Shown here in pieces: positions 13,932-32,775 of a DNA stretch of 49,120 nt. A program made the translations under genes and the position numbers. A model generated the notes under the pieces. It ran no database searches. It was not told where the DNA came from and was given only the letters and a program-made list of their open reading frames with translations. The stretch's first letter is position 1; each line of letters opens with the position of its first letter. Source of the stretch: Betaproteobacteria bacterium (GTDB lineage Bacteria > Pseudomonadota > Gammaproteobacteria > Burkholderiales > SG8-41); contig JAOTTL010000002.1 of the NCBI GenBank assembly GCA_029864385.1, positions 1 to 49,120 on the forward strand. The letters are read 5' to 3'.

Positions 13932-15278
13932 ATGGAGATGAAGTTTCCGGAGGAGAAGGGCCCGCAGCAGTTCGTCAAGGGCGGAACGTTGATCGACGGC
14001 TCGGGCAAGAAGCCGATCAAGGATCCCGTCATCGAGTTGAACGGACGTCGCATCAAGCGCGTCGGCACCAAGGCGAGCATCAGGATCCCGCCGCGCGCCA
14101 CCGTGATCGATTGCGGCAACAACACGCTCATGCCGGGGATGATGGATCTGCACATCCACACGGCCATGTACAACTGCATGACTTTCCACAACCACCGGGT
14201 CGCGCAGTTCGAGATCATGCCGCACTTGCAGCAGATGTACTCGTTGTTCCACGCGCAGAACTGCTTCGACATGGGTTTCACGACCCTGCGCGATCTCGGC
14301 ATGAACGGACCCTACGGCCTGCTCGTCAACGAGCTGTGCGCGGTGCGCGACGCCATCAATGCCGGCATCGTGGAAGGCCCGCGCATGCTGGTCGCCGGCT
14401 TCACGACCATGACCGGATCGCACCTGGATCTCATCCAGCCGCGGGCGATGCATCGCTGGGGCTTCAACACGGCTGATGGGCCTTGGGAGCTCAGAAAGCT
14501 CGCGCGGAAGAACATGCTCGCCGGCTGTGACGTCATCAAGACGTGCGCGTCCGGAGGCGGAGGCACGGACAAGGAAGAGCCCGACATCCGCAATCTCACG
14601 CAGGAAGAGCTCGATGCGCTCGTCGACGAAGCGCACGCCCTGCACAAGCACGCGGCGGTGCACTGCTTCACCACCCAGGCGCAACGCATGGCGATAAAGG
14701 CCGGCACCGACACGATCGAGCACATGGTTTTTCACGACGACAAGACCATCGACCTGATTGCCGAGGTGGGCGTGCCCGTTACGCCCACCCTGTCGCATCG
14801 CACGGATCACGCGATCCAACTGCGGCGCGAGCAGGGCACTGCGGAGTTCGTGCTGCGCAAGATGAAGTATCTGCAGCCCTTCTGCTTCCAGACCTTCCAG
14901 AAGATGTACAAGGCTGGCGTCAAGATCGCCATGGGAACCGACATGGGCTTCGAGCCCCACATGGGGACGAACGGCGCGGAGCTGGAAATCTATGTCAAGC
15001 TCGGGATGAAGCCGATGGACGCGATTCTGACCGCGACTCGCAACGCGGCGCAGGCGCTGAAGATGGACAAGGATCTCGGCACGATTGTGGCCGGGAAGCT
15101 CGCCGACATCATCGCCATCAACGGCGATCCGCTAAAGAACATCCGTTGCATTCAGGACAAGAAAAACATCCAGCTGGTGATGAAGGAAGGCAAGATCTAC
15201 GCCGATCGCCGCCCGGGAAAGAACAAGAATGTCGTCAACGTAAAGCCGGGGGAGTGGAAGATCGTTGATTATCTGTAA
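13932..15278 (+). CDS. metal-dependent amidohydrolase-superfamily hydrolase
   Basis: HxH metal motif in LMPGMMDLHIHT, TIM-barrel amidohydrolase layout, C-terminal ADIIAINGDPL. RBS GAGGGAGG. Confidence 0.85.
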   Translation: MEMKFPEEKGPQQFVKGGTLIDGSGKKPIKDPVIELNGRRIKRVGTKASIRIPPRATVIDCGNNTLMPGMMDLHIHTAMYNCMTFHNHRVAQFEIMPHLQQMYSLFHAQNCFDMGFTTLRDLGMNGPYGLLVNELCAVRDAINAGIVEGPRMLVAGFTTMTGSHLDLIQPRAMHRWGFNTADGPWELRKLARKNMLAGCDVIKTCASGGGGTDKEEPDIRNLTQEELDALVDEAHALHKHAAVHCFTTQAQRMAIKAGTDTIEHMVFHDDKTIDLIAEVGVPVTPTLSHRTDHAIQLRREQGTAEFVLRKMKYLQPFCFQTFQKMYKAGVKIAMGTDMGFEPHMGTNGAELEIYVKLGMKPMDAILTATRNAAQALKMDKDLGTIVAGKLADIIAINGDPLKNIRCIQDKKNIQLVMKEGKIYADRRPGKNKNVVNVKPGEWKIVDYL

Positions 15279-15299
15279 TTCGCTCTGCGAATTACAGAT
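15271..15299. other. perfect 13-bp stem / 3-nt loop hairpin spanning the amidohydrolase stop codon
   Basis: ATCTGTAATTCGC tct GCGAATTACAGAT. It is AT-rich compared with its surroundings and has no trailing T-run. Confidence 0.9.
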
Positions 15300-15338
15300 T
15301 AATGAGGGAACGGAACGAACAGTAACTTTTAACTCAGG

Positions 15339-15866
15339 GTGAGGCACATGGCGATGCGCAAGAGTTCAGCCGGGAAATCCTCCAATGTCGGCGCGCGCAA
15401 GCGCGCCGGTGGTCAGTTTTCGTCGCGTGGCGCGACGAAAACTAAGGGCGCGACGAAGGGCGGTAACGGGCGTTACCAGTTCAAGCTGGCGGGCCTGAAG
15501 AAGGTTCCAGCCGGAACTGGCTACTCGACGTCGCATGGCGGCGTTGTGGAAGGCAAACGGATGCTCGTAGGCTACATCCACAAGCCGCGCGGCACCGGCT
15601 CGCGCATGCACACGCACAAGAACGAGCAGTTCAACTTCGTGGTCCAGGGCACACTGAAGGGCTCGGTCAATGGCAAGCGCGTGCTGGCACCCGCTGGCAC
15701 GCTGATCTATATTCCGGCAAACGTGCCGCACACGCTCGTCGCCACGCCGGAAAAGAACGTGATCTTCATCGCCATCAAGGATCTCTCGCAGGGCATTATC
15801 GGAAAGGCGGTCGACGGCACGATGGCGGGGCCGCTCTACGAGCGCGGCTACGGCCCGCGCGATTAG
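15339..15866 (+). CDS. cupin-domain protein with basic low-complexity N-terminus
   Basis: Cupin motifs GSRMHTHKNEQFNFVVQG and IYIPANVPHT. The first ~55 aa are K/R/G/S-rich. Confidence 0.7.
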   Translation: MRHMAMRKSSAGKSSNVGARKRAGGQFSSRGATKTKGATKGGNGRYQFKLAGLKKVPAGTGYSTSHGGVVEGKRMLVGYIHKPRGTGSRMHTHKNEQFNFVVQGTLKGSVNGKRVLAPAGTLIYIPANVPHTLVATPEKNVIFIAIKDLSQGIIGKAVDGTMAGPLYERGYGPRD

Positions 15867-15877
15867 GTCCAGCCGGC

Positions 15878-17413
15878 GTGTCCCACGAAGACCTCCTGAG
15901 GCAGCTCGAGGAGAACACCACCGCCGCGCTTGCGATGGGCGGGCCCGAGAAACTCGCCGAGCGCAAGGCCCAGCGGCTGCTCAATGCGCGCGAGCGCATC
16001 GATTATCTCGTCGACCCGGGGTCCTTCGTCGAATCGGGCCGCTTTGCCCGCGCGATCCGCCCCGAGGTGAGGCACAAGACGCCGGCTGACGGCAAGGTCG
16101 TGGGTTTCGCGCGGATCGGCGGGCGGGAAGTTGCGCTCGTCTCGAACGACTTCACCGTGCTCGGCGCCTCGTCGAGCGTGGTCAACATGAAGAAGATCAA
16201 GCATGTCAAGCAGACCGCGTCCAAGCGCGGTTTGCCGCTGGTCCTGCTTGGCGAGTCCTCGGGCGCACGCATGCCGGACCGCATGGGCGCGGCCGGGCGC
16301 GCGATCATCGCGCAGGATTCCACTGAGTACCAGCGGCTGCGCGAGACCCCCTGGGTTTCTGCGTTGCTCGGCCAGTGCTACGGCTCTTCAACGTGGTACT
16401 CGGCTATGTCCGATTTCGTCGTGATGCGCAAAGGTGCCATCATGGCGATCGCCAGCCCTAGCGTTACCTCCATCGCGATTGGCAAGCCGATCGACCCGGA
16501 GGACCTGGGCGGCTGGAAGCTCCTGACCGGTATCTCCGGGCTGGCCGATCTGGCGGTCGACACTGACGAGCAGGCGCTCGACGCCATCAGGCGATTCCTG
16601 TCCTACCTGCCGAGCCACAGCATGGAGCCGCCGCCGGAGTACCCCGTGCCGGCCGGCTCGGATGAGCCGTGCCGCAAGGTTCTCGATGTCCTGCCCGAGT
16701 CGCGCAACAAGGTCTATGACGGGCGCAAGATCATCGCCGCGATCGCGGATCTCGAGTCGCCCTTCGAACTGAAAGAGCGCTACGGCCGTTCCGTGTCGAC
16801 TGTGTTCGCGCGCCTCGACGGCAAGAGCGTGGGCTTCGTCGCCAACAACCCCCTGTTCAAAGGCGGGGCGCTTGATGCAGACGCGTGCCAGAAGGTCACG
16901 AGCTTCATGGTGCTGTGCGATTCCTTCAACATCCCTCTCGTGTTCCTGGTGGATGTGCCCGGATTCCTGATCGGGCTTGAGGGCGAGATGCGCGGCATGC
17001 CCGGCAAGGTGATCAACTGGATGAATGCACTGACGCAGGTTACCGTGCCCAGGATCACGGTCATCATGCGCAAGAACTATGGCCAGGCGTTCATCAACAT
17101 GGGCGGCGGCAAGAACACCGACGAGGTGGCGTGCTGGCCGATGGCGGATCTGGGATTCATGGATCCGGCGGTCTCCGTCAACGTGCTCTACGGATTGAAG
17201 CGCGAAGACGATCCGGAGCGCTTCAAGGAACTCGTGGCCGAGGTCGAGCGCGACACGGCGCCTTGGGGTCTCGCCGAACTCTACGAAGCACAGAACGTGA
17301 TCGATCCGCGCGATACGCGTCAATTCCTGATTCGCACGTTGCAGGTCCACCGCATGCGCATGAAAAGAGGCGTGGGCGAGCACCTGTTGCGCAACTGGCC
17401 GACGAGCTATTAG
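15878..17413 (+). CDS. acyl-CoA carboxylase carboxyltransferase subunit (paralog 1)
   Basis: GTG start 11 nt after the cupin stop. Carboxyl-transferase domain motifs VSNDFTVLGASSS, FVANNPLFKGGALD, ACWPMADLGFM. About half the residues are shared with 25831..27366, including the identical C-terminus WPTSY. Confidence 0.9.
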   Translation: MSHEDLLRQLEENTTAALAMGGPEKLAERKAQRLLNARERIDYLVDPGSFVESGRFARAIRPEVRHKTPADGKVVGFARIGGREVALVSNDFTVLGASSSVVNMKKIKHVKQTASKRGLPLVLLGESSGARMPDRMGAAGRAIIAQDSTEYQRLRETPWVSALLGQCYGSSTWYSAMSDFVVMRKGAIMAIASPSVTSIAIGKPIDPEDLGGWKLLTGISGLADLAVDTDEQALDAIRRFLSYLPSHSMEPPPEYPVPAGSDEPCRKVLDVLPESRNKVYDGRKIIAAIADLESPFELKERYGRSVSTVFARLDGKSVGFVANNPLFKGGALDADACQKVTSFMVLCDSFNIPLVFLVDVPGFLIGLEGEMRGMPGKVINWMNALTQVTVPRITVIMRKNYGQAFINMGGGKNTDEVACWPMADLGFMDPAVSVNVLYGLKREDDPERFKELVAEVERDTAPWGLAELYEAQNVIDPRDTRQFLIRTLQVHRMRMKRGVGEHLLRNWPTSY

Positions 17414-17440
17414 CAGCGGCTGCCAGAATCACGCAGGATT

Positions 17441-17458
17441 TAGCCGCAGATAAGCGCC
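17441..17458 (-). repeat. copy of the GCGTTTATCTGCGGCY motif (reverse strand)
   Basis: The plus strand reads TAGCCGCAGATAAGCGCC, whose reverse complement is GGCGCTTATCTGCGGCTA. Confidence 0.8.
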
Positions 17459-17534
17459 GATTAGATCAATAAGTGGTTAGAGGGTGAGCTGGCAGGCTTG
17501 CGCGAAATCGTTTCCAGTCCAGGGAGGGTGTGAA

Positions 17535-17954
17535 ATGCAGTGCGGGTGTCTGACAAGTACGAGGTCCGGTGATGCTGGCGCCGATACCGGCGACGCACCG
17601 GCGCGCCCAGGCCCAGCGCTGGGGCTGGCATTGATCGTGGCGCTCGTGGCGGGCTGCGTCTACGTTGACGATGTGCGGGAATCCGTTCTCCCGGCCCGCA
17701 TCGATTACTCATGCGCGGGAAACAAGGTCCTGCCGGTGTCGCGCGCGCCCGGTCAGAAGCACGCCGCAGTCCTCCTCGATGGAAAGTGGGTGAAGCTGGC
17801 GCGCGCCGATAGCGCGGCGCAGGAAAAGTACAGCAATGGAACCTACGCCCTGTACCTGCATGATGAACGCGCGATGTTGGAGGACCAAGGGCGGGTCCTG
17901 TACGGGCCGTGCACCTCGCCGGTTGATCTCCCGACGGCTCGCCGTTATCGCTGA
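17535..17954 (+). CDS. MliC-like lipoprotein (candidate lysozyme-inhibitor fold)
   Basis: RBS GGGAGGG before ATG 17535; lipobox LVAGC. The pattern Y.C..N.VLPV....(hydrophobic strand)...L..ADSAAQEKYSNG.YALY.....L.......Y.PC resembles MliC. Weak, based on recalled family features only. Confidence 0.5.
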   Translation: MQCGCLTSTRSGDAGADTGDAPARPGPALGLALIVALVAGCVYVDDVRESVLPARIDYSCAGNKVLPVSRAPGQKHAAVLLDGKWVKLARADSAAQEKYSNGTYALYLHDERAMLEDQGRVLYGPCTSPVDLPTARRYR

Positions 17955-17986
17955 GAGTTCCGCGTGGCGGCGCACAGCGGCGCGTA

Positions 17987-18283
17987 GTGACGCCTGAGGT
18001 TGTCGCGATGAAGCCGCGCTTGTTCTACGTTATCGCTTGGCTGCCGCTCGCCCTCCTGCTTGGAGTCCAACTCTACGCGCGCCAGTTCGATGGTTGGGGT
18101 CGGTGGGCGGCCGCACCCTTGTTTCTGCTGCCGGTCATCTTGAGCGCGGTGTTGGTCGTGTTCGGCGTCGCGATCTGCCGTCGTGAGGCCGCAGCGGGTC
18201 GCGCGCTGGCCGCTATGGCTACCGCAACGCTGGCCGCCGCCATTCCCGCGCTCTGGTTTGTGGTGCGCGTGCTCGCGAGCTGA
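17987..18283 (+). CDS. hypothetical small membrane protein (3 predicted TM helices)
   Basis: Three hydrophobic helices (LFYVIAWLPLALLLGV, LFLLPVILSAVLVVFGVAI, ATLAAAIPALWFVVRVL). The antisense ORF looks spurious. Confidence 0.45.
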   Translation: MTPEVVAMKPRLFYVIAWLPLALLLGVQLYARQFDGWGRWAAAPLFLLPVILSAVLVVFGVAICRREAAAGRALAAMATATLAAAIPALWFVVRVLAS

Positions 18284-18331
18284 GCAGCACGCGGCGTTTC
18301 GTAGCGGCGTTATTGCCCGGCGCCACGCCAA

Positions 18332-19309
18332 TCAGGGAGCGACGGGCGTCGGCGGCGGCAAAACCGCGCCCTTCTCACCGGCGACGCGGCGTAGAACGTC
18401 GGGACGGTCGCTGATGATGCCGTCGACTCCCCAGTCGATGAGGCGCCGCATGTCGGCGGGCTCGTTCACCGTCCATACCACGACTTTTAAACCGAACGCG
18501 TGTGCTTCCTTGACCGCTTCGCGCGTGAGATCGCCGCTATACGGCGACCACACGGCCCCTCCCGCCGCCTTGACCATCCGGGGAATGGCCCCCTCGAACT
18601 GACTTACATGTAAGCCAGCCGTCCAAGGTGAGGATGGACGGCTGGCTTGAATGTTGTCCATGAAGTCGCTGACCGTCGTGAGATAAACGGTCGCGATTTC
18701 CGGCGCGTCCGCCTGCACGACGGCGAGCGTGCGCCAGTCGAACGACTGGATAGCCGTGCGATCGGCCATTCCGGCCGCCCGCACGGCTGAAATGAGTACA
18801 CGGGCAAAGACCTCTGGGGCGACCGTCTCATCCGGCGCCAACGGGGATGTCTTCGTCTCGATGTTGAAGCGCACCGTGTCGTTGGCGGCCTTGCGCACGA
18901 GATTAAACACGTCTGATAGTCGCGGGATGCGTGCACCGTCGACCGCCTGCTGCTCCGGCCAGCGCTTCGCGTAGGCGCTCGCCGGGTTGATGCGGCCTAC
19001 GTCGTAGCGCTGCAGTTCTTCGTAAGTGAGGTCACGAATACGGGGACCGGGGTTCGTCAGCCAGTTCCCGTCTGGCCCGCGAGTCAGGTCCGGGTTCAGG
19101 ACGGAGTCGTGACCGATTACGGCCACGCCGTCCTTTGTGACCGCGCAATCCATCTCGAGCGTGGTGACGCCGATCGAGAGCGCGCGGGCGAAGGCCGCCA
19201 GCGTGTTCTCGGGTGCGAGCCCGCGCGCGCCACGGTGGCCCTGCAAATCAAGCGCGTATGTGCCAGTGGCGGCCATGGTGAATGCTGCACAAATTATCGC
19301 GAAGCGCAT
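18332..19309 (-). CDS. glycerophosphodiester phosphodiesterase family protein, secreted
   Basis: Start at internal Met (MRFAIICAAFTMAATGTYA signal peptide), then DLQGHRGARGLAPENT and WGVDGIISDRPD. The upstream 58 codons of ORF 18332..19483 run through a tandem repeat and are rejected. Confidence 0.85.
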   Translation of the reverse strand: MRFAIICAAFTMAATGTYALDLQGHRGARGLAPENTLAAFARALSIGVTTLEMDCAVTKDGVAVIGHDSVLNPDLTRGPDGNWLTNPGPRIRDLTYEELQRYDVGRINPASAYAKRWPEQQAVDGARIPRLSDVFNLVRKAANDTVRFNIETKTSPLAPDETVAPEVFARVLISAVRAAGMADRTAIQSFDWRTLAVVQADAPEIATVYLTTVSDFMDNIQASRPSSPWTAGLHVSQFEGAIPRMVKAAGGAVWSPYSGDLTREAVKEAHAFGLKVVVWTVNEPADMRRLIDWGVDGIISDRPDVLRRVAGEKGAVLPPPTPVAP

Positions 19310-19330
19310 GCCCGATGGGTCGAGGGAGCC

Positions 19331-19418
19331 CGTGAAGTTGGGAGATCGGGAGATGGAAAACCGGGAGATCGTGAGATCGGAAAATCGTGAGATCGGGAAA
19401 TCGGGAGATGGAAAAAAC
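19331..19418. repeat. ~11 units of a degenerate 8-nt repeat (GGGAGATC / GTGAGATC / GGAAAATC) upstream of the GDPD gene
   Basis: CGTGAAGT TGGGAGAT CGGGAGAT GGAAAAC CGGGAGAT CGTGAGAT CGGAAAAT CGTGAGAT CGGGAAAT CGGGAGAT GGAAAAAAC. Confidence 0.9.
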
Positions 19419-19463
19419 GCAGTCTCCCTCTCACGCTCTGACGCGCTCCCGTTCTCACGGATC

Positions 19464-20150
19464 TTATCCGCCGCCGGGCGCAAGCCCTGTCATCCGCCAT
19501 CCACCTTCGGTCTTGACGAAGCAGGCGGCGTGCTCGATCGGGCTGCGGATCTGTTCTTCCGGAACATAACCCTCGCCGTTCCTTACCTTGACTTTGACCC
19601 AGCGCTGCTTCACGTCCGCGGCCTTATCGGTGACCTCCCAGTCGGAGATCGTGACGATGTCGTAGGAGAGCACCTGCACCGTCGCCGACCTCGACGACGG
19701 CCCCGCTTTTACCAGGACCTCGCGCGCGACCGCCGCGCCGTGCTGGAACGGATCCACGTCCTGCGGCCACTTCGCGAGCAGGTACGGTGCGCAGAGCTCG
19801 CGGCGGCCATTTTCACGCTCGAGGTACGCGGAACCGAGAAAGAGCGCGGAGCGCAGCGCGTGCCACAGGGGACCCTTCTCGGCATCGACTTCCCATCGCT
19901 TTCTGAATTCCGCGGCGCCGCGGGGCGCTTCGAGGCCGGTGCGCACGTCCTGCGCGAGGATCCCCATCACGTGTTTACGGTCGCGCACCTCCGCGGCGTT
20001 GAGCAGCCGGTTACGGAAGCTGACCCAGGACGGGTCGCGCGCGGCCTCGTCCACGGGCTCGAGCCGGCCCTCCTGACCGAGCGCGGGCGCCGGGGGCGGG
20101 CCAACCAGCATGGCCACCAGAACGAAGGGCAGCGCGATTTTTGCGGTCAT
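19464..20150 (-). CDS. hypothetical secreted protein with SH3-like C-terminal region
   Basis: Signal peptide MTAKIALPFVLVAMLVG. ATGA overlap with the upstream enoyl-CoA hydratase gene. No recognisable catalytic motif. Confidence 0.6.
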   Translation of the reverse strand: MTAKIALPFVLVAMLVGPPPAPALGQEGRLEPVDEAARDPSWVSFRNRLLNAAEVRDRKHVMGILAQDVRTGLEAPRGAAEFRKRWEVDAEKGPLWHALRSALFLGSAYLERENGRRELCAPYLLAKWPQDVDPFQHGAAVAREVLVKAGPSSRSATVQVLSYDIVTISDWEVTDKAADVKQRWVKVKVRNGEGYVPEEQIRSPIEHAACFVKTEGGWRMTGLAPGGG

Positions 20151-20962
20151 TTGCCCTTGAAGTCACCGGCGCGCTTTTCGAAGAACGCGCCGAGCGCTTC
20201 GAGGTGGTCCCCCGTTTTCTGCAATATCGCCTGAAACGACGCGCAGGTCTCGAGATGGTCCTCGAGACTCTGTTCCTGAGCCAGCTTGAGCGTGCGCTTG
20301 GCGTAGCGCACGGCTAGCGGCGGCTTTGCCGCGATCTGCGCGGCGATTTCCTGCGCGCGCGGCATGAGCGCCTCGGGCTCGGTCACCTCGAGCAGGATGC
20401 CGATGGCGCGCGCTTCCTCGGCTTTAATGACACGGCCGGTCAAGGTCAGCTCGGCGGCGCGTTGTGTCCCGACGAGGCGCTGGAGAAACCAGGCGCCACC
20501 GTCGCCGGCAATCAGGCTCAGGTTGATGAACGATTCGCCGAACTGCGCACGAGTCGAGCCGATACGGATATCGCACATATTCGCGAGATCGAAGCCTGCG
20601 CCCATTGCCGGGCCGTTTACCGCGGCAATAATGGCGATTTCGGAGCGGCGCATTGCCACTGGAATGCGTTGAATGCCGCGGCGGTAGTATTGCTCGAGCT
20701 CAAAAGACGCTGCGGTACCGGAACGCTCGCGCATTACCTTAATGTTGCCTCCGGCGGAGAACGCGCTGCCGGCGCCGGTCAGAATCAGCACCGAGAGGCC
20801 CTCGCATGCATTCGCCCATTCCAGCGCCGCACAAATGTCGTCAACGAGGCCGGTCCCAGTGAGCGTGTTGCGTACGTCGTCGCGTCGCAACGTGAGTACC
20901 GCCACGCGCCCGTCGCGAGCGAGCGTGGCATCCTTGAGGGTTGGCAGGCTTGTGGTGCTCAT
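20147..20962 (-). CDS. enoyl-CoA hydratase/isomerase (crotonase) family protein
   Basis: ILTGAGSAFSAGGNI oxyanion-hole motif and crotonase fold length (271 aa). Confidence 0.9.
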   Translation of the reverse strand: MSTTSLPTLKDATLARDGRVAVLTLRRDDVRNTLTGTGLVDDICAALEWANACEGLSVLILTGAGSAFSAGGNIKVMRERSGTAASFELEQYYRRGIQRIPVAMRRSEIAIIAAVNGPAMGAGFDLANMCDIRIGSTRAQFGESFINLSLIAGDGGAWFLQRLVGTQRAAELTLTGRVIKAEEARAIGILLEVTEPEALMPRAQEIAAQIAAKPPLAVRYAKRTLKLAQEQSLEDHLETCASFQAILQKTGDHLEALGAFFEKRAGDFKGK

Positions 20963-21093
20963 TTGATAGCGAGAAGAAAGGCTGTTGTTGCAAGCGCGCT
21001 ATGTTACGCAGCGCACGCGGCAGGCACAACCCGCCGTGCTATACTCGCCGCGGCATTTTTTGCAGGACATCGTAAGATTTCACATACGTACGC

Positions 21094-21315
21094 ATGGCAC
21101 GTATCGATATCAAGTCCGAAATCACCGGGACGGTCTGGAAGGTCACGACGGGGCCTGGAGACAAGGTCGACTCCGGCGACGCGCTGCTCATCATAGAGTC
21201 GATGAAGATGGAAATTCCGGTGATTACGGAAGATGCAGGAACGGTCGTGGAAATCCTCGTCCAAGAGAAGGAAGCTGTGGCCGAAGGCCAGGTGGTCGCC
21301 GTCCTTGATGGCTAG
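21094..21315 (+). CDS. stand-alone biotin carboxyl carrier protein (biotinyl domain only)
   Basis: 73 aa with the biotinylation motif ..LLIIESMKMEIPV.. Confidence 0.85.
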   Translation: MARIDIKSEITGTVWKVTTGPGDKVDSGDALLIIESMKMEIPVITEDAGTVVEILVQEKEAVAEGQVVAVLDG

Positions 21316-21344
21316 AACGTGTGTCGAAAACCGAAAGACATTCC

Positions 21345-21371
21345 TAGCCGCGTTTATCTGCGGCTAAATCG
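21345..21371 (+). repeat. copy of the GCGTTTATCTGCGGCY motif, here a 7-bp hairpin TAGCCGC gtttatct GCGGCTA
   Basis: TAGCCGCGTTTATCTGCGGCTAAATCG. It overlaps the GntR stop codon (21354-21356). Confidence 0.85.
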
Positions 21372-22154: not shown

Positions 22155-22183
22155 GCAGGGGACGATACTGGCCGCTTGTAATA

Positions 22184-22205
22184 TTGTCAACAATATTATT
22201 GACAA
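22184..22205. promoter_or_regulatory. near-palindromic AT-rich operator candidate in the GntR / Mo-enzyme divergent region
   Basis: TTGTCAACAATATTATTGACAA has 20 of 22 positions dyad-symmetric and contains GT..AC-type half sites typical of GntR-family operators. It lies 30-50 nt upstream of the regulator start. Confidence 0.55.
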
Positions 22206-22381
22206 CAATAAGGGCTATGCCTACCATGACCTTCCCCGCGCCGCCTTGCGCAGCCTCGCGTTTCCAATCCCATGAGCTCGATGCCCGAGATCAAGGAAAT
22301 TCATCGACGCGTTACAGCCGCGGTTGAGAATGCAGCTGGGGCCGAAGTACAAGGCGGGCGTCCGGCCTTAGGTTCAAGAGC

Positions 22382-22416: not shown

Positions 22417-22434
22417 AGTAAAGGGAGGGCGTAG

Positions 22435-25830: not shown

Positions 25831-27366
25831 ATGGCATTTGAATCGTTATTGGCAGAGTACGAAGCGCGGCGCGCAAAGGCGCTCGCGGGCGGCGGCGCTG
25901 AGAAGTACGCCAAACGCAAGGCGGCTGGCGTCTGGAACGCGCGTGAGCGGATCGACTATCTCGTCGACCAAGGAACATTCATCGAGTCGGGCTTGTTCGG
26001 CTCCTCGGGCGTTTATCCGGAGCAGGAAAACGAAACCCAGACCGATGGCAAGCTCGCGGGCTACGCGAAGATCAGCGGGCGCGACGCGTGCGTGGTGGTG
26101 AACGACTTCACGGTGAAGGGCGCTTCCACCAGCTCGACCAACAGCAAGAAGATCGCACAGATGAAGCGCACTGCGACCGAGCGCGGCATGCCGTTGGTTG
26201 TCATCGGAGAGTCCACCGGTGCGCGGCTGCCCGACGCCATGGGCTCGCGCGGCATGGGTCAGCTGCTTGGAAATGACATCACGCAATTCCGGCGCCTGCG
26301 CGAGACGCCGATGGCAGCCGCGGCGTTCGGGCCCTCGTTTGGCTCGTCGACCTGGCTCATGTGTCAGGCCGATTTCGCGGTGATGAAAAAAGGCGCGACG
26401 ATGGCCGTGTCGAGCCCGGGGCTCGTGTCGATGGCCCTTAACGAAAAAGTGGACGCGGAGGAGCTCGGCGGTTGGCGGCTGCATGCCGAGACCACCGGCC
26501 TCATTGACCAGGCGGCGGATACCGAGGAAGAAGTTTTCGACGCGATAAAGAAGTTTCTCTCGTACCTGCCCAGCCATCACATGGAAGCGCCACCCGATGC
26601 GGCGGTGCTGGCCGGTTCGGGTGCCGATATGGAGAAGGTCTTCTCTGTGCTGCCGGAGAGTCGCACGCAGGTGTACGACATGAAGCGCATCATCCGGGCG
26701 ATCGCCGACAAGGATACCGTCTTCGAGTTGAAACCGCGCTTTGGCAAGAGTGCGGTGACGGCGCTCGCGCGCCTCGGCGGGAAAAGCGTGGGTATCGTCG
26801 CCAACAACCCGTTACATCGGGGCGGGGCGCTCGACGGCGATGCCTGCCGCAAGATCGTGGATTTCCTCGTGCTGTGCGACTCGTACAACGTGCCCCTCAT
26901 GATCCTGGCCGACACGCCGGGCTTCCAGATCGGAACCGAAGCCGAGAAGGCGGGGGCGCCGGGTAAGATCATGAACTTCATGAACGCGATGACACTGGTC
27001 ACGGTGCCGCGCGTATCCGTCATCATTCGCAAAAGCTATGGCCGCGCCTACGTCTGCATGGGAGGTGGCCGGCACTCCGATGAGATCGCAGCGTGGCCCA
27101 CGGCCGAAGTGAGCTTCATGAGCCCCGAGTTCGCGACCAAGATCGTCCACGGCGTGGGAGCGGGCGAGCCGGGGTTCGAAGAGGCGCTGGCCAAGATCCG
27201 GAAGGGCGCCGATGTCTGGGGGCTTGCCGCCGTTTACGCTGCGCAGGCGGTGATCCGGCCCGAACAGACGCGCGATTACCTGATTCGCATGCTCGATGTG
27301 CACCGGTTGCGGATCACGAAAGGCGTCGGGCAGCACTTGATGCGCGCCTGGCCCACTTCTTACTAA
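25831..27366 (+). CDS. acyl-CoA carboxylase carboxyltransferase subunit (paralog 2)
   Basis: VVNDFTVKGASTS, IVANNPLHRGGALD, AAWPTAEVSFM, C-terminus WPTSY. Start at ATG 25831 (MAFESLLAEYE..). Confidence 0.9.
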   Translation: MAFESLLAEYEARRAKALAGGGAEKYAKRKAAGVWNARERIDYLVDQGTFIESGLFGSSGVYPEQENETQTDGKLAGYAKISGRDACVVVNDFTVKGASTSSTNSKKIAQMKRTATERGMPLVVIGESTGARLPDAMGSRGMGQLLGNDITQFRRLRETPMAAAAFGPSFGSSTWLMCQADFAVMKKGATMAVSSPGLVSMALNEKVDAEELGGWRLHAETTGLIDQAADTEEEVFDAIKKFLSYLPSHHMEAPPDAAVLAGSGADMEKVFSVLPESRTQVYDMKRIIRAIADKDTVFELKPRFGKSAVTALARLGGKSVGIVANNPLHRGGALDGDACRKIVDFLVLCDSYNVPLMILADTPGFQIGTEAEKAGAPGKIMNFMNAMTLVTVPRVSVIIRKSYGRAYVCMGGGRHSDEIAAWPTAEVSFMSPEFATKIVHGVGAGEPGFEEALAKIRKGADVWGLAAVYAAQAVIRPEQTRDYLIRMLDVHRLRITKGVGQHLMRAWPTSY

Positions 27367-27372
27367 TCGAGA

Positions 27373-27468
27373 AGTGATGATAGAGGGTGATGAGAAATGG
27401 TGATGAAAAATGGTGATGAGAAAGCCGCACCGCCGACTTAACGGTTGGCCATCACCAGTACTCGTCAC
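27373..27468. repeat. 4 x 13-nt array (AGTGATGATAGAG GGTGATGAGAAAT GGTGATGAAAAAT GGTGATGAGAAAG) plus inverted arm CCATCACCAGTACTCGTCAC
   Basis: Left arm 27373-27424, right arm 27449-27468, in the CT2-BC spacer. Confidence 0.9.
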
Positions 27469-27521: not shown

Positions 27522-28871
27522 ATGTTCAATAAGGTTTTGGTGGCGAATCGGGGGGCGGTGGCGGCAAGGGTGCTGCGCGCGCTCTACGAGCTCGGCGTGA
27601 AGAGCGCGGCGGTGTACTCCGAGGCGGACTATGGCGCGCCCTATCTCGAACTCGCGAGCGAGACGTACGCGATTGGGGCGGCGCCAGCACGCGAAAGCTA
27701 CCTTAACCAGGACGCACTGCTTGAGGTGATCGGGCGTTCAGGGGCGGAGGGCGTGCATCCGGGCTACGGTTTCTTGTCGGAGAACGCCGAGTTTGCGCAG
27801 CGTGTGCTCGATGCCGGGGCGCGCTTCATCGGTCCTTCTCCCAAGTGGATCTCGGCGATGGGTCACAAGACCAGGGCGCGCGAGCTCGCGGCGCACTACG
27901 GCATGCCGGTCGCGCGGGGCTCAGAGGTGCTGCCTGCGGAGAGCGACGCGGTGCTGGCGGCGGCGCGCGCAATCGGGTTTCCGGTGCTGGTCAAGCCCGC
28001 CGGTGGGGGCGGCGGCATCGGAATGCTGCCCGCCAAGGACGAAAGCCAGCTCCTCGAGGCCGTCGAGCGCTCGCGGTCGATGGCGTCGCGCGGCTTCGGC
28101 AATGCCGAGGTTTACCTCGAGCGCCTGATCGAGCGGCCGCGCCATATCGAGTTCCAGGTTTTGGGCGACACGCACGGCGGCGCGGTGCATCTTTTTGAGC
28201 GGGACTGCTCGACACAGCGGCGCAACCAGAAAGTGATCGAAGAAGCGCCGGCACCGGCAATCCTTCGCAGCGACGTGGAATCGATGGCTGCGCGCGTGGC
28301 ATCCATCGTCCGCGAGATAGGATACGACAACATCGGTACGGTGGAGATGCTCTACGGCCCTGACGGCTCGTTCAGCTTTCTGGAAATGAACACCCGCCTC
28401 CAGGTCGAGCACGGCGTGACCGAGGAGGTGACTGGGGTGGATCTCGTCAAGGCGCAGGTACGTTGCGCCGCGGGCGAGTCGTTGGCAGAGATCCTTCCGC
28501 CGGCCATCGAGTTAAAAGGCCATGCGATCCAGGCGCGGGTTTACGCCGAGGACCCGACAAGCTTCTTTCCGTCGCCCGGAAAGCTGAAAGTGTTCCGGCC
28601 GCCGCAGGATCCGGAAATTCGGGTCGAGACTGGCTATGCCGAGGGCCGTGACGTGACGCCCCATTACGACCCGATGATCGCCAAAGTGATCGTGCATGCC
28701 GCAACGCGGGCGCAGGCGATCGAGCGGCTGATCGAGGCGCTGGAGGTGTTCGAGATTCAGGGCCCCAAGAACAACATTCCAGCGGTGCTGGCCGTCCTGC
28801 GATCGGACGCATTCCGCTCCGGCGAGGTGCATACGGGACTGATCCCGCAAGTGCTCGGCAAGAAGCCGTGA
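27522..28871 (+). CDS. biotin carboxylase (AccC-like, no BCCP domain)
   Basis: MFNKVLVANRGAVAARV, ATP-grasp glycine loop PAGGGGGIGM, FLEMNTRLQVEHGVTE. Confidence 0.95.
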   Translation: MFNKVLVANRGAVAARVLRALYELGVKSAAVYSEADYGAPYLELASETYAIGAAPARESYLNQDALLEVIGRSGAEGVHPGYGFLSENAEFAQRVLDAGARFIGPSPKWISAMGHKTRARELAAHYGMPVARGSEVLPAESDAVLAAARAIGFPVLVKPAGGGGGIGMLPAKDESQLLEAVERSRSMASRGFGNAEVYLERLIERPRHIEFQVLGDTHGGAVHLFERDCSTQRRNQKVIEEAPAPAILRSDVESMAARVASIVREIGYDNIGTVEMLYGPDGSFSFLEMNTRLQVEHGVTEEVTGVDLVKAQVRCAAGESLAEILPPAIELKGHAIQARVYAEDPTSFFPSPGKLKVFRPPQDPEIRVETGYAEGRDVTPHYDPMIAKVIVHAATRAQAIERLIEALEVFEIQGPKNNIPAVLAVLRSDAFRSGEVHTGLIPQVLGKKP

Positions 28872-28910
28872 ATCGTAAAACGTGAATCGTGAATCGTGAA
28901 TCGTGAATCG
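28867..28910. repeat. 6 heptads CGTGAAT CGTAAAA CGTGAAT x4 starting in the BC stop codon
   Basis: Read directly; four consecutive perfect CGTGAAT units. Confidence 0.95.
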
Positions 28911-29080: not shown

Positions 29081-29103
29081 ACCCTATTCCGAGAGGATTC
29101 TGA

Positions 29104-29814
29104 ATGGACTCGCGGGACCTGATCGTTGAAGCACGCAAGCGGGGGCGGGCGACGCTCGATGAGCAAGCCGGGAAGTGGCTGCTCGCCGCCTACGGCGTCG
29201 CCGTTCCTGCGTCGGTGATCGTGCCGGGCGCTGCGGGGGCCGCTGCAGCGTTCGAGTGCCTCAAGCCGCCGGTGGTGGTCAAGGTCATGTCTCCCGACAT
29301 CCTGCACAAGAGCGAAGCGCGCGCGGTACGGCTCAACGTGGCATCCGCTGTGGAACTGGCGGCGGCATGCGAGGAGATTCTTGCGAACGCGCGCGCTTAC
29401 AAAAACAATGCCCGAATCGACGGGTTCCTGGTGGAGGAGATGGCGCCGGCTGGCCAGGAGATGGTGATCGGCGGCCTGCGCGATCCGCAGTTCGGCCCCC
29501 TCGTCATGGTGGGGCTGGGCGGAATTTTCGTCGAGGTGCTGGCGGATGTCGCTTTCCGCATCTGCCCGATTGAGCGGCGCGACGCCGAGGAAATGCTGGA
29601 CGAGTTGAAGGGCGCGGCAATTCTCAAAGGCGCGCGCGGCAGAAAGCCGGTCTCGCGCGAGGCGATCGTCGAGACGTTGCTCCGGATCGGTGGCGAGCGG
29701 GGGCTTCTCATGGATCACGCGGCCGACATCAAGGAGGCGGACATCAACCCCCTCATCGTTTCCGAACGCGGGGCGGTCGCGGTGGACGCCCGCTTCGTGC
29801 TTTCGAAAGAGTGA
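29104..29814 (+). CDS. ADP-forming acyl-CoA synthetase, beta (ATP-grasp) subunit
   Basis: ATP-grasp pattern VVVKVMSPDILHKSEARAVRLNV..VEEM..GQEMVIGG..DPQFGP..MVGLGGIFVEVL and INPLIV tail. RBS GAGAGGA. Confidence 0.85.
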   Translation: MDSRDLIVEARKRGRATLDEQAGKWLLAAYGVAVPASVIVPGAAGAAAAFECLKPPVVVKVMSPDILHKSEARAVRLNVASAVELAAACEEILANARAYKNNARIDGFLVEEMAPAGQEMVIGGLRDPQFGPLVMVGLGGIFVEVLADVAFRICPIERRDAEEMLDELKGAAILKGARGRKPVSREAIVETLLRIGGERGLLMDHAADIKEADINPLIVSERGAVAVDARFVLSKE

Positions 29815-29943
29815 TGAGTACTGGTGATGAGAGATGGTGATGGGAGATGGTGATGAGAAGCTTTCTCCAACCTGCACCGATGCGAGCGGTTTTCCATCAC
29901 CAGTTTCCATCACCATTAATCATCACCATTAATCATCACCATC
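29811..29943. repeat. inverted 13-nt word arrays between the acyl-CoA synthetase beta and alpha genes
   Basis: Left 29811-29860: GTGATGAGTACTG GTGATGAGAGATG GTGATGGGAGATG GTGATGAGAAG. Right 29894-29943: CCATCACCAGTTT CCATCACCATTAAT CATCACCATTAAT CATCACCATC. 33-nt spacer. Confidence 0.95.
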
Positions 29944-29953
29944 TCGGATTTCA

Positions 29954-31399
29954 ATGAGCGAGAGCATCCTCCAGGAATTCGGACCGTTATTCGCACCGAA
30001 GACGGTGGCAGTCGTCGGCGCCTCAACGAAGGGAACGGCGCTGCCCAATGTGTTCATTCGCCGTATACGGGAATTCGGTTATACCGGTGAGATCTATCCG
30101 ATTCACCCCTCGGCCGCCGAGATCGACGGATTTAAGGCCTACAAGAGCCTCGGCGAGACGCCGCGGCCGATAGACTACGCCTACATCGCCATCGGGGCGG
30201 CGCAGGTCGCGCCGTTGCTCGCGGTTGGCAAGGGGCGGGTGCGCTTCGCACAGGTGATCTCGAGTGGTTTCGGGGAAGTCGACGAGGGCAAGACGCTGGA
30301 GGAAGAACTGGCGGCGGCGGCTCGCGCCGGCGGCATGCGGCTCATCGGCCCCAACTGTCTTGGCATCTACACGCCTCGCGGCCACGTAACTTTTACCGAG
30401 ATCGGTCCCAAGGAATTGGGGTCCATTGGCATCATCTCGCAGAGTGGCGGCCTCGGCACCGACATCATTCGCCGCGGCTATGCGCGCGGCTTGAAGTACT
30501 CCGGGTTGATTACCGTTGGCAACTGCGCCGACGTCGAGCCGCACGAATTGCTTCAGTTTTATCTGGCCGATGCCGAGACCCGGGTCGTCGGCATGTACAT
30601 CGAAACCGCAAAGGACGGCCGGCGGCTGTTCGAGATTCTTCGCGAGGCGCGAGCGAAGAAGCCTGTCGTGATCCTCAAAGGCGGCCGCACGCAACAAGGC
30701 TTGCTTGCCGCCGCCTCGCACACCGGATCGCTTGCCGGCGACGATCGGGTGTGGGTGGCGTTGTCGCGGCAGACGGGCTGCGTGCTGGTGAACACCCTCG
30801 ACGAATTCATCGACGCGCTGCTCATCTTCCAGGCCCTTGCGCCGCACGCGCAGCGCCCGATGCGTCGCGTCGTGCTGTTCGGCAATGGCGGCGGCACTAG
30901 CGTTCTGGCGACGGACTACTATGCACGCCTCGGTCTCGACGTGCTGCCATTCGACCGTGCCGCGATCGCCGCGTTGGCCGACCTGAAATTGCCTCCGGGA
31001 ACGAGCATCACGAATCCCGTGGATTGCCCGGTGGGCACGCTGCAGCAGGAGGACGGCCGGGTCGCGGAGAAGATTCTCGATATCATCTACGAAAAGGGCG
31101 ACCCGGACGTGCTCGTGATGCATCTCAATCTCTCAGCTTTCGTCGGTCGAACCAAGGACGAGGTGCTCGACAACCTCATGCAGGTGGTGCTCCGGGTGCA
31201 GTCGCGGCACCCGGGCCGGGCGCATTTCGTGCTGGTGCTGCGTTCCGACGGCGACCCGCCGCTCGAAGAGCGCAAGCGCGCATTCCGCAGCACGGCCACT
31301 GCGCTGGGTATTCCGGTCTACGACGAGATGGCAAATGCCGGCGTGGCGCTCGCGGCATTGGCGGCGCACGAGCGCTTTATTCATGCTCGAAATGCGTGA
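29954..31399 (+). CDS. ADP-forming acyl-CoA synthetase, alpha (CoA-binding/ligase) subunit
   Basis: CoA-binding VAVVGAS..., phosphohistidine motif AASHTGSLAG, 481 aa. Confidence 0.85.
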   Translation: MSESILQEFGPLFAPKTVAVVGASTKGTALPNVFIRRIREFGYTGEIYPIHPSAAEIDGFKAYKSLGETPRPIDYAYIAIGAAQVAPLLAVGKGRVRFAQVISSGFGEVDEGKTLEEELAAAARAGGMRLIGPNCLGIYTPRGHVTFTEIGPKELGSIGIISQSGGLGTDIIRRGYARGLKYSGLITVGNCADVEPHELLQFYLADAETRVVGMYIETAKDGRRLFEILREARAKKPVVILKGGRTQQGLLAAASHTGSLAGDDRVWVALSRQTGCVLVNTLDEFIDALLIFQALAPHAQRPMRRVVLFGNGGGTSVLATDYYARLGLDVLPFDRAAIAALADLKLPPGTSITNPVDCPVGTLQQEDGRVAEKILDIIYEKGDPDVLVMHLNLSAFVGRTKDEVLDNLMQVVLRVQSRHPGRAHFVLVLRSDGDPPLEERKRAFRSTATALGIPVYDEMANAGVALAALAAHERFIHARNA

Positions 31400-31446
31400 C
31401 CCGTGACCAGCGTTTTCTAAAAACCGGTGAAACCAGAAGACCATTA

Positions 31447-31536
31447 ACCACGGAATCAAACGGAAATACACGGACAATGACCTGAACCGGGAGGCGCGCC
31501 GTAGGCGATCCACAATTTCAGTGTGCTTCCGTGGCT
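31447..31536. repeat. third copy of the CACGGAA-word element plus an inverted GCTTCCGTGGCT
   Basis: 31447-31476 ACCACGGAATCAAACGGAAATACACGGACA (27 of 29 identical to the reverse complement of 29012-29040); 31525-31536 GCTTCCGTGGCT. Confidence 0.85.
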
Positions 31537-31563
31537 GTGTTGTTCTCGACATAGGTTTTAGTG

Positions 31564-32775
31564 ATGCAGTACGCACACGATTTTCGCGCAGTCGGGTATC
31601 CCTTCCGGCTCTATAGCGGCAAGAATGCGCTCGACAAGCTGCCCGACGAGATTGCGCGTCATCGCGCCAGCCGCGCGTTTATCGTCTGCGGCCGCACCGT
31701 TTCGCGCCAGACGCCGCTGATCCGCCAGATGAGCGCCCTGCTCGGCGACAAGCTTGCCGGCTCGTACGATGAAATCGACAAGGACACGACGCTGTCATCG
31801 GTGCTCCGCGCTACCGACGCCGCACGCGCCGCGCAGGCGGATCTCATCATCGGCGTGGGGGCGGGCAGCGTGATCCAGGGTGCCCGGGTGGTCACCATAC
31901 TGCTTGCCGAAAAGCGTCCGCTCGAGGAGCTGATAACGAAGTACCCGGAGCACGGCCCGGCAATCAGCGCGCGGCTCATGGCGCCGAAACTGCCGATCAT
32001 CAACGTGCTCACGGCCCCGACTACAGCGCAGAATCGGGCCGGCTCGCGGATCAAGGACGACGCCACGGGGCGCGGCATGGAATTTTTCGATCCGAAGACC
32101 CGCCCAGGCGCGATCTTCTGGGATGCGGATGCGCTCTCGACGGCGCCGGCGAGCCTCATCCGCACGGGCGCAGCGACCACTTACTGCCGCTGCGTAATGA
32201 ACCTCGGCGGCCTGGCGGTCAATCCTCTGGTGGAAGGAAATCGGCTGCAGGCGTTTCGCCTCGCTGCCGGCGCACTGCCGCGCATTGGCGACAAGGCTGA
32301 TCCGGGGCCGCGGCTCGAGCTCTGCGCGGCGACACTGCTCCAGAACCGCGAGGCCGATGACGGCGGCACGCAATTCGAGCGCCACTGGGCGGGGCGCGTG
32401 ATCTATGCGTTCTCGACCGCGCTGTTCAGCGTGTTTCCTCACGTCGGGCAAGGAGAGGGAACGAGCGCTGTCACCGGGACCGTCCTGCGCCAGCTCGGCA
32501 CGCGGGATCCGGAAGCCATGGTGCGAATGGGCAAGGCCCTCGACGTGTGGCGCGACGGCATGCCGGTCGAGGAGGCGCCGCTGCGCGTTGCCGATGCGCT
32601 CGAGGAAGTGCTCTGCTCCCTTGGGATGCCCACCCGGCTCTCGGCACTCGGCATCGAGCGCGAGGGGCTGCTCCGCGTCATCGAGCACTCGCTGCGGAAC
32701 TTCAACGCCGATCCCAAGCGGGAGTTCGCGCGGGAGCGCGAGCTTCTCACGCGCGTGCTGGAGGCGGCCTGGTAA
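31564..32775 (+). CDS. iron-containing (group III) alcohol dehydrogenase family / maleylacetate-reductase-like oxidoreductase
   Basis: Fe-ADH fold features: IVCGRTV, IIGVGAGSVIQGARVV, ~400 aa. The start could be GTG 31561 or ATG 31564. Confidence 0.75.
   Translation: MQYAHDFRAVGYPFRLYSGKNALDKLPDEIARHRASRAFIVCGRTVSRQTPLIRQMSALLGDKLAGSYDEIDKDTTLSSVLRATDAARAAQADLIIGVGAGSVIQGARVVTILLAEKRPLEELITKYPEHGPAISARLMAPKLPIINVLTAPTTAQNRAGSRIKDDATGRGMEFFDPKTRPGAIFWDADALSTAPASLIRTGAATTYCRCVMNLGGLAVNPLVEGNRLQAFRLAAGALPRIGDKADPGPRLELCAATLLQNREADDGGTQFERHWAGRVIYAFSTALFSVFPHVGQGEGTSAVTGTVLRQLGTRDPEAMVRMGKALDVWRDGMPVEEAPLRVADALEEVLCSLGMPTRLSALGIEREGLLRVIEHSLRNFNADPKREFARERELLTRVLEAAW

Follow-up and report, generated by a model that had tools for sequence, protein, structure and literature searches.

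Described biotin-dependent carboxylases arrange their parts in several ways. The archaeal AccC/AccB/PccB enzymes keep a separate biotin carboxylase (BC), a separate biotin carboxyl carrier protein (BCCP) and a two-domain, crotonase-fold carboxyltransferase (CT) of ~510 aa. The mycobacterial carboxylase of long-chain acyl-CoAs (LCC; AccA3-AccD4-AccD5-AccE5, PDB 9t97) fuses BC and BCCP in AccA3, adds an epsilon subunit, and joins two CT paralogues, encoded together and served by one BC/BCCP supply, into a hetero-CT known from a solved structure. The methylcrotonyl-CoA and geranyl-CoA carboxylases (MCC and GCC) of the Liu/Atu clusters have a fused alpha chain and are encoded with an HMG-CoA lyase and an isovaleryl-CoA dehydrogenase. 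The DNA analysed here, a stretch of 49,120 nucleotides from an uncultured Betaproteobacteria bacterium of the SG8-41 lineage (contig JAOTTL010000002.1; hereafter the window), carries a related carboxylase beside a molybdenum (Mo) enzyme of the sulfite-oxidase (SUOX) fold and an electron-transfer flavoprotein (ETF). Its 15.3-33.8 kb region is probably a rearranged, GntR-controlled catabolic operon of SG8-41-like sediment Burkholderiales, by which a carboxylic acid would be processed through CoA activation, hydration, carboxylation and a step passing electrons from the Mo enzyme to the ETF.

A conserved operon and its rearranged copy

Genes were assigned by Pfam and NCBIfam scans of the window proteins, which were then compared with the 80 loci returned by a profile search with the Mo enzyme over one genome per GTDB species. 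The scattered window genes are a locally rearranged copy of a single operon found in ~45 uncultured sediment and soil Betaproteobacteria. Its usual order, present as contiguous operons on the long contigs L001, L003, L089 and L090, is BCCP, CT3, Mo enzyme, EtfB, EtfA, CT2, BC, the two halves of a split ADP-forming acyl-CoA synthetase (ACD-beta and ACD-alpha), an iron-containing alcohol dehydrogenase (Fe-ADH) or a CaiB-family protein, and a FlK thioesterase on the plus side, with GDPD, a signal-peptide protein, a crotonase and the divergent GntR regulator on the opposite strand. Downstream of the Mo gene, EtfB is found in 52 of the 56 assessable betaproteobacterial loci, EtfA in 47 of 50, CT2 in 44 of 46, BC in 37 of 39 and the ACD genes in 33-35 of 33-35; upstream of it, BCCP is found in 46 of 54 loci. 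Median identity across loci is highest for CT2 (84%), followed by BC and ACD-alpha (76-77%), the Mo enzyme (71%) and EtfA (59%). The genes are inherited together as a unit, and their neighbourhood, which a preliminary description of this DNA had proposed to compare across genomes, is co-conserved among GTDB species. The same description had called the carboxylase "distributed", which is accurate for the window, where its genes are indeed scattered, but reflects local rearrangement and the deletion of CT3; the usual state is one operon. The features of the window are as follows.

13932-15278, plus strand: amidohydrolase (Amidohydro_1; Xaa-Pro-dipeptidase-like, below cut-off), a weakly linked context gene
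15339-15866, plus strand: cupin (Cupin_2, by Pfam), 11 nt upstream of CT1
15878-17413, plus strand: CT1, family-A carboxyltransferase of 511 aa with a WPTSY tail (Pfam, alignment)
18332-19483, minus strand: GDPD, periplasmic-type phosphodiesterase, between CT1 and the crotonase
19464-20150, minus strand: signal-peptide protein of 228 aa, between CT1 and the crotonase
20147-20962, minus strand: crotonase (enoyl-CoA hydratase family; Pfam/NCBIfam), divergent from BCCP
21094-21315, plus strand: free BCCP of 73 aa with the motif IESMKME (NCBIfam stand-alone carrier model)
21354-22208, minus strand: GntR/FCD regulator (PF00392 and PF07729)
22183-22209: two ATTGWCAACAAT 12-mers, putative GntR operators, overlapping the -35 boxes of back-to-back promoter-like sites
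22262-22372, plus strand: CT3 deletion scar, a 110-bp remnant of a family-B CT
22435-23679, plus strand: cytoplasmic SUOX-fold Mo enzyme (PF00174 and PF03404)
23930-24733, plus strand: EtfB, bifurcating-type by similarity
24730-25725, plus strand: EtfA, bifurcating-type by similarity, overlapping EtfB by 4 nt
25831-27366, plus strand: CT2, family-A carboxyltransferase (Pfam, alignment)
27522-28871, plus strand: BC of 449 aa without a carrier domain (three BC Pfam domains)
29104-29814, plus strand: ACD-beta (ATP-grasp_5), half of the split ADP-forming acyl-CoA synthetase
29954-31399, plus strand: ACD-alpha (CoA-binding/ligase), half of the split ADP-forming acyl-CoA synthetase
31561-32775, plus strand: divergent Fe-ADH-family protein (Pfam/NCBIfam)
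33366-33755, plus strand: FlK-type hotdog acyl-CoA thioesterase, last conserved gene of the set
39062-43289: crotonase, two acyl-CoA dehydrogenases (ACAD1 and ACAD2, at 39900-42269) and a TctC gene

Every gene named in the preliminary description is present and intact where it had been placed, as confirmed with Pfam and NCBIfam, and the GDPD, the signal-peptide protein, the FlK thioesterase, the CT3 scar and the ACAD pair had escaped it. The split ACD is recognised on two adjacent genes by ATP-grasp_5 (238 bits), CoA_binding_2 (65 bits) and Succ_CoA_lig (151 bits). The GDPD and the signal-peptide protein are syntenic with the cluster, and are probably periplasmic and outside the pathway.

The arrangement of the window and its origin are both supported by environmental sequence. 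Independent contigs from two sediment metagenomes match positions 15000-23710 with one mismatch each, and because they reproduce the gene order, the order of this part is not an assembly artefact; two public sediment metagenomes contain nearly the whole stretch. CT2 and the Mo enzyme have counterparts, at 85-99% identity, in metagenome-assembled genomes (MAGs) of uncultured Burkholderiales/Betaproteobacteria, the nearest genome entries being MAG_442_bin-18 (99%) and, from sediment of the White Oak River estuary, SG8_41 (94%). Papers on SG8-41 treat general metabolism only (beta-oxidation, nirS/norBC, mtrABC).

Control of the operon appears to be centred on the GntR gene. The two best promoter-like sites in 20 kb stand back to back at 22162-22227, and each holds its -35 element TTGACA inside a copy of the 12-mer ATTGWCAACAAT, at 22183-22194 and 22198-22209. 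This 12-mer is a half-palindrome of the GntR/FadR type. One or two copies of it are present in 22 related loci, and at those whose GntR coordinates were checked (L001, L003, L005, L033, and L089) it immediately precedes the GntR gene. The two copies are likely GntR operators, and the layout would fit a repressor of its own gene and of the operon from the Mo enzyme to the Fe-ADH; the GntR gene itself probably starts only downstream of 22162 (minus strand). The BCCP gene of the window lies on the far side of GntR with an upstream region of its own.

Around this core, the related loci vary in several ways. The crotonase is conserved in 28 loci, and in 12 loci that lack a separate crotonase a 705-aa FadB-like hydratase/dehydrogenase lies between BC and ACD. 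A CaiB-family protein takes the place of the Fe-ADH in ~9 related loci, and TctC binding-protein genes are inserted at several points. In 11 species an orthologue of CT1 (72-85% identical) borders the locus on its upstream side. L033 and L058 have a cupin next to it (80-81% identical to the window cupin), L090 has an amidohydrolase, L089 an enolase-family gene, and L009 and L012 have TctC. CT1 and CT3 may each be present or absent in a related locus, and every one of the four possible combinations is found, so a strict replacement of one by the other was rejected. A link to arylmalonate decarboxylase and enolase-superfamily genes, which lie beside the cluster in L090, L089, and Sulfitobacter, was likewise dropped, as they are not conserved in other loci; in L090 the arylmalonate-decarboxylase-family gene (18867-19550) lies at the operon end beside a thioesterase and TctC, and is absent from the other loci.

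Short tandem arrays of a GTGAYGA-type heptamer or 13-mer (GTGATGAAAAATG) occupy most intergenic spacers of the operon. They are found at 22380-22413, 23678-23766, 27374-27423 and 28867-28910, and further at 29809-29858, 29891-29942, 37889-37912 and 45051-45210, one array being AGTGACG in 12.7 copies directly after the stop codon of the Mo gene. Positions 23683-23739 reach a depth ~30 times that of the contig in the source metagenomes, which indicates that the repeat is present at many genomic places. A different tandem repeat of 8/24 nt, GGGAGATC, lies at 19340-19415 between the genes for the signal-peptide protein and GDPD; the GDPD open reading frame as listed encodes 383 aa, and its relatives have ~314 aa, so that its real start is probably later. 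Upstream of the locus lie housekeeping genes for transketolase, GAPDH, pyruvate kinase, a class-I aldolase and a CobW-like GTPase. Just past the operon is a nitronate monooxygenase-family gene (34634-35674, minus strand) that is not conserved in related loci. An open reading frame at 43296-43829 aligns with the D-2-hydroxyacid dehydrogenase NAD-binding domain over the C-terminal half of that domain alone, and may be truncated or a pseudogene.

Two carboxyltransferase families and a deleted third gene

The window genes are predicted to provide a complete multi-subunit biotin carboxylase with a separate BC, a free BCCP and single-chain CTs. The BCCP passes the stand-alone carrier model NF004547 (80.2 against a cut-off of 75), and the BC, which starts at M18 of its open reading frame, keeps EMNTRLQVEH and a glycine loop GGGGIGM; the BC catalytic residues and the MKM biotinylation site, like the separate chains and the size and fold of the CT, are common to this system and the archaeal separate-subunit enzymes. 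CT1 and CT2 are 53% identical over 511 aa, both end in WPTSY, and both match PF01039 over their full length (317 and 304 bits) as two-domain crotonase-fold carboxyltransferases. The orphan carrier, the carrier-less BC and the paralogous WPTSY carboxyltransferases of the preliminary description are thereby borne out by scans and alignment. ATP- and bicarbonate-dependent carboxylation of an acyl-CoA would follow from the CoA ligase or transferase that is adjacent in all related clusters.

CT1 and CT2 belong to a family termed here A, and CT3, a 522-aa protein whose gene immediately precedes the Mo gene in 32 of 54 loci, belongs to a second family, B, that is ~32% identical to CT1/CT2. The families were placed by bit-score ranking against solved structures. 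The best structural relatives of both are PccB, AccD5, 12S, and MmdA (245-300 bits for family A, up to 325 for family B), with MCC and GCC beta subunits at 138-163 bits for CT1/CT2 (138-217 over both families) and GcdA at only 83-89 bits. The two families differ from the PccB group at positions G182-G183 and G419-A420 of Streptomyces coelicolor PccB, which form the oxyanion holes, and at D422, a specificity residue. Where that PccB has AGGAVY (G182-G183) in the N-domain, family A has YGSS(T/S)W and family B keeps AGG; where it has (Y/F)GGA (G419-A420) in the C-domain, family A has YG(Q/R)A and family B YGMA; and D422 is replaced by V in CT2 and I in CT1. Relative to the PccB/AccD5/12S/MmdA clade, the WPTSY tail is also unique. 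By these measures families A and B appear to be separate, uncharacterised clades beside the PccB group.

The preliminary description had judged the locus unlike the liu/atu, propionyl-CoA and acetyl-CoA carboxylase clusters, and this holds, as none of the curated models is passed and MccB/GCC are far less similar than PccB. The profile comparison that it had proposed for the CTs gave the same result, since neither passes a curated model of a characterised clade; the curated NCBIfam equivalog cut-offs are reached by none of CT1, CT2, CT3 and BC (TIGR01117, 304-333 for CT1/CT2 and 304-356 for all CTs, against a cut-off of 999). The Liu/Atu clusters share the logic of carboxylase plus hydratase, to which a CitE-type lyase is added in a Sulfitobacter relative of the operon, but their fused alpha chain, HMG-CoA lyase and isovaleryl-CoA dehydrogenase are not features of the window cluster: BC and BCCP are separate, and the lyase is absent from the window, both as previously described.

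Family-A CTs related to those of the window (~54-62% identical to CT1/CT2) were found on plasmids by translated searches, several in cultured bacteria. Plasmid pBB2 of Cupriavidus necator N-1 carries, in order, GntR, TctC, a CaiB CoA-transferase, a 73-aa BCCP, CT-B, MaoC, TctC, CT-A and BC. Variovorax sp. SRS16 has two sets with TctC, CoA-transferase, CT-A, CT-B and BCCP, which sit behind different regulators and of which only the first contains a BC gene. A Sulfitobacter plasmid has CT-A, a fused ACD ligase (56% identical to the window ACD), BC, BCCP, MaoC and a CitE-type CoA-ester lyase. Plasmid pBB2 and the operon share the order BCCP, CT-B, X, CT-A, BC, X being MaoC and TctC in the former and the Mo enzyme and EtfBA in the latter; gene order in Variovorax differs. 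The Cupriavidus and Variovorax clusters activate by CoA-transferase and the window by ADP-forming ligase; the ligase and transferase are orthologous to plasmid counterparts at 52-58% identity, the pBB2 CoA-transferase being 52-57% identical to the operon-end CoA-transferase of ~9 MAG loci. Homologues of the window crotonase directly follow fused ACD ligases in Paraburkholderia and Variovorax plasmids. From this comparison a recurrent minimal unit can be drawn, consisting of a carboxylate binding protein, CoA activation, a (de)hydratase and an A/B carboxylase. Searches of plasmids with the Mo enzyme and the Fe-ADH returned distant relatives only (up to 36% and 30% identity, respectively). The Cupriavidus and Variovorax clusters are likewise uncharacterised, and no prior characterisation of related plasmid clusters was found in the literature.

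The locus could in principle encode an ordinary propionyl- or acetyl-CoA carboxylase for odd- or branched-chain catabolism, with unrelated neighbours and redundant CT paralogues. The structural ranking, headed by PccB, AccD5, 12S and MmdA, agrees with this, as does the V or I at D422, which, as interpreted from S. coelicolor PccB/AccB, is found in promiscuous acyl-CoA carboxylases, and so does the high conservation of CT2. Identity to any PccB, however, is only ~33-38% and the equivalog scores are far below cut-off; in 44 of 46 species the carboxylase genes and those for the Mo enzyme and Etf are intermingled, behind a dedicated putative GntR operator; and the several sets of Variovorax, each with its own regulator, TctC, and CoA-transferase, fit substrate-specific enzymes. 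An ordinary carboxylase of this kind is thus considered unlikely, and a dedicated enzyme within the operon is preferred.

In the window, the family-B CT that normally accompanies family A has been lost. The closest relative, L005, has ~95% DNA identity over the best-matched genes and retains CT3, of which 1456 bp are missing from the window. In the scar at 22262-22372, 13 N-terminal codons of CT3 meet 19 C-terminal ones in a different reading frame, the junction falling on a 13-nt microhomology, AATTCATCGACGC. The deletion junction is present in contigs of three metagenomes (X1, X2, and X3), and in a fourth (X4) the window match of a contig from a slightly different strain ends at the junction and continues for ~450 nt, consistent with an intact CT3 in a close relative. 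A scar-like sequence also occurs in SG8_41 (L006), which is more distant from the window than L005; that the nearer L005 keeps CT3 suggests recurrent loss or recombination.

Two distinct CT paralogues are encoded with one BC and one BCCP: families A and B occur together in 32 of 54 related loci and on plasmids, and the window has two family-A genes. The mycobacterial LCC offers the closest parallel, with one BC/BCCP supply and two CT paralogues encoded together. In the present system BC and BCCP are two chains, an epsilon subunit was not recognised, families A and B are not orthologues of AccD4 or AccD5, and a mixed CT core, which a solved structure shows for mycobacteria, is suggested by the gene content. 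The ketone carboxylases XccABC and AcvCDE were considered as a two-CT precedent and rejected, their CT being PycB-like, not crotonase-fold, and single.

A molybdenum enzyme beside an electron-transfer flavoprotein

The Mo enzyme has a molybdenum-cofactor domain (PF00174, Oxidored_molyb, 129 bits) and a dimerisation domain (PF03404, Mo-co_dimer, 59 bits). Its best matches are SorA, SoxC, and SorT, SorA being the best solved relative, and it shares with them both domains and a Cys in a C-x-G-N motif, the Mo-ligand C102 aligning to SorA C104 within a retained ECAGND. Unlike them, it is cytoplasmic, as the preliminary description had proposed, with no twin-arginine (Tat) or other signal sequence found in the protein; it is without a haem or cytochrome partner, the operon containing no cytochrome gene and having EtfBA as the neighbour; and it bears a conserved insertion of ~45 aa. 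The SorA pocket residues R55, H57, R109, W231, and Y236 align to V55, Q57, A107, Y279, and F284, so that all five are replaced. Across the family F284 is invariant, V55 and Q57 are nearly invariant, and A107 and Y279 vary but are never Arg or Trp, and D106, which follows CAGN just before the position of SorA R109, is invariant. Scores against the curated SoxC/SorA/SorT models are 151-206, with cut-offs of 420-600. Because the pocket is replaced and these cut-offs are not reached, the enzyme is placed in the SUOX fold but outside the sulfite dehydrogenases; an identity as a sulfite dehydrogenase was rejected on the active-site residues, and oxidation of sulfite or of another oxyanion appears unlikely. 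The earlier speculation that the substrate might release an S- or N-oxyanion is correspondingly weakened, both arginines being among the lost residues and an Asp standing near the Mo-Cys. A 10-sequence alignment gave an AlphaFold model with a pLDDT of 46, too low to use. Two tandem Mo-enzyme paralogues, 63-72% identical to that of the window, precede EtfBA in four loci (L033, L035, L058, and L089), so the Mo enzyme of some lineages might be a heterodimer.

These residues also bear on whether the locus serves organosulfur (sulfonate or sulfinate) degradation, with the Mo enzyme as a cytoplasmic sulfite dehydrogenase that detoxifies sulfite and the carboxylase acting on propionyl-CoA. The SUOX fold and the SorA, SoxC and SorT matches would suit such a role, a TauE/SafE-like protein was recognised by eye beside the Mo gene in four alphaproteobacterial loci, and a ligase or CoA-transferase with a propionyl-CoA carboxylase-like enzyme recalls the catabolism of 3-sulfinopropionate. 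The replaced pocket, the invariant Asp and the low curated scores argue against it, however, and the locus contains no desulfinase, Xsc, SuyAB or CDO-type dioxygenase, its cupin being a Cupin_2 protein. Organosulfur degradation is therefore a very unlikely function for a locus in which the Mo enzyme is better read as acting on some other centre.

EtfBA appears closest to the bifurcating ETFs. EtfA scores 223 bits with CarE, 202 and 201 with other bifurcating ETFs and 155 with the human protein; EtfB scores 174 bits with CarD and 125 with another bifurcating ETF, as against 78-97 for classical ETFs (human, 78). CarDE, Acidaminococcus and Clostridium EtfAB, and FixAB are the best sequence relatives of both subunits, but no ACAD, CarC or FixCX is adjacent, and the Mo enzyme adjoins instead. 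This pairing extends beyond the Betaproteobacteria. EtfBA lies beside the Mo gene in 7 of 17 non-betaproteobacterial loci, with two more in inverted order, and the carboxylase is never there; Mo-EtfBA without carboxylase is found in Alphaproteobacteria, Binatia, and Polaromonas MAGs. A gene read as ETF:quinone oxidoreductase adjoins EtfBA in two non-betaproteobacterial loci, and other such loci contain genes that look, by eye, like those for hydantoinase A/B, amidase, and PrpD. In the four alphaproteobacterial loci, again by eye, the TauE/SafE-like protein beside the Mo gene is a multi-pass membrane protein of 244 aa and is accompanied by a TRAP transporter and a Rieske oxygenase, and L088 has Pfam-annotated CoA-transferase, Rieske, and Amidohydro_2 genes. 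Taken together, Mo-ETF may be a portable unit with dehydrogenase function, delivering electrons to the quinone pool. Literature searches on a SUOX-fold enzyme with ETF, on hypotaurine dehydrogenase genes and on the gene combination found nothing relevant.

Bifurcating-type ETFs classically partner acyl-CoA dehydrogenases, and the ETF might instead serve the heteromeric ACAD pair that lies 14 kb downstream in a beta-oxidation-like process, with the Mo enzyme as an unrelated passenger. The preliminary description had noted no adjacent ACAD, which is true inside the span that it covered, but the pair lies 7 kb downstream of it. ACAD1 and ACAD2 are accompanied by a crotonase and TctC; one of the two genes is without a middle-domain match, as in heteromeric ACADs. 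The pair abuts BCCP in L019, ACAD1 is found downstream of the cluster in L001, and the crotonase and FadB-like genes of the operon imply an enoyl-CoA step. Set against this are the adjacency of Mo, EtfB, and EtfA in 52 of 56 betaproteobacterial loci, the Mo-Etf adjacency in other phyla with no ACAD seen nearby, and the lack of an ACAD within 10 kb in most related loci. A dedicated ETF-ACAD system with the Mo enzyme as passenger is accordingly judged improbable, and a partnership of Mo enzyme and ETF is favoured.

Proposed pathway and its significance

In the proposed pathway, a carboxylic acid would be converted to its CoA thioester by the ADP-forming ligase, or by the CaiB transferase in relatives, and the crotonase would hydrate or dehydrate an enoyl- or 3-hydroxyacyl-CoA intermediate. 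BC would carboxylate biotinyl-BCCP with ATP and bicarbonate, and a family-A CT hexamer, probably mixed with family B or CT1 by analogy with mycobacterial AccD4/AccD5 (PDB 9t97), would carry the CO2 onto a short acyl-CoA at its alpha-carbon, the products being handled by the thioesterase and the alcohol dehydrogenase. The Mo enzyme would oxidise some intermediate or by-product of the pathway at a non-oxyanion heteroatom centre, and its electrons would pass singly to ETF and then to the quinone pool. The GntR/FCD repressor is expected to bind the two ATTGWCAACAAT boxes over the divergent -35 elements.

The preliminary description had envisaged an acid, amide or lactam as the substrate. An organic acid fits the ADP-forming CoA ligase, and the CaiB-type CoA-transferases and TctC proteins of the related clusters. 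An amide or lactam has little to recommend it, because elsewhere an amidohydrolase stands beside CT1 only in L090 and the cupin-CT1 pair recurs only in L033 and L058. A saturated or unsaturated C3-C4 acid of the acrylate, 3-hydroxypropionate, or propionate type may be offered as a weak guess, because the ligase or transferase, hydratase, thioesterase, alcohol dehydrogenase, and propionyl-CoA carboxylase-like step map to it.

Several points weigh against this reading. The substrate guess draws on generic enzyme classes, and the Mo/ETF and carboxylase modules are separable, as the plasmids have the carboxylase without Mo and other phyla have Mo without the carboxylase; a shared pathway is proposed here only because the gene order is interleaved. 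All synteny counts are conditional on the Mo gene, by which the loci were found, and the close relatives are all MAGs. No RNA runs turned up in a search for them. At the oxyanion holes of PccB both CT families are off-consensus, with GS in place of GG and G[QRM]A in place of GGA, and their catalytic competence is an assumption. The ACAD pair at 39.9-42.3 kb could be the real client of the ETF, and SUOX-fold enzymes are not known to have an ETF partner.

The acyl-CoA carboxylase is of a known kind, and the Mo-ETF partnership is unusual and possibly new. A more far-reaching proposal, put forward only tentatively, is that the locus represents a novel pathway in which a new cytoplasmic class of SUOX-fold Mo enzyme, with an acidic non-oxyanion site and a bifurcating-type ETF as its partner, works with an A/B hetero-CT carboxylase on one organic acid, its portable Mo-ETF part being found also in hydantoinase/amidase- and Rieske-like clusters of other phyla.

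For the carboxylases, the comparison brings to light two uncharacterised CT families that many Burkholderiales, among them cultured Cupriavidus and Variovorax, encode together alongside a single BC and a single BCCP. If the hetero-CT proves true, the mycobacterial LCC would be joined by a second example, and engineered carboxylation might gain a new class of substrates. For the Mo enzymes, a protein of the sulfite-oxidase fold that is almost certainly no sulfite oxidase appears to be wired to an ETF. The cultured surrogates and the predicted operator make the question directly testable, and as the operon ranks with the better conserved loci in a widespread, uncultured betaproteobacterial lineage of estuaries and soils, its substrate likely matters for carbon turnover in sediments.

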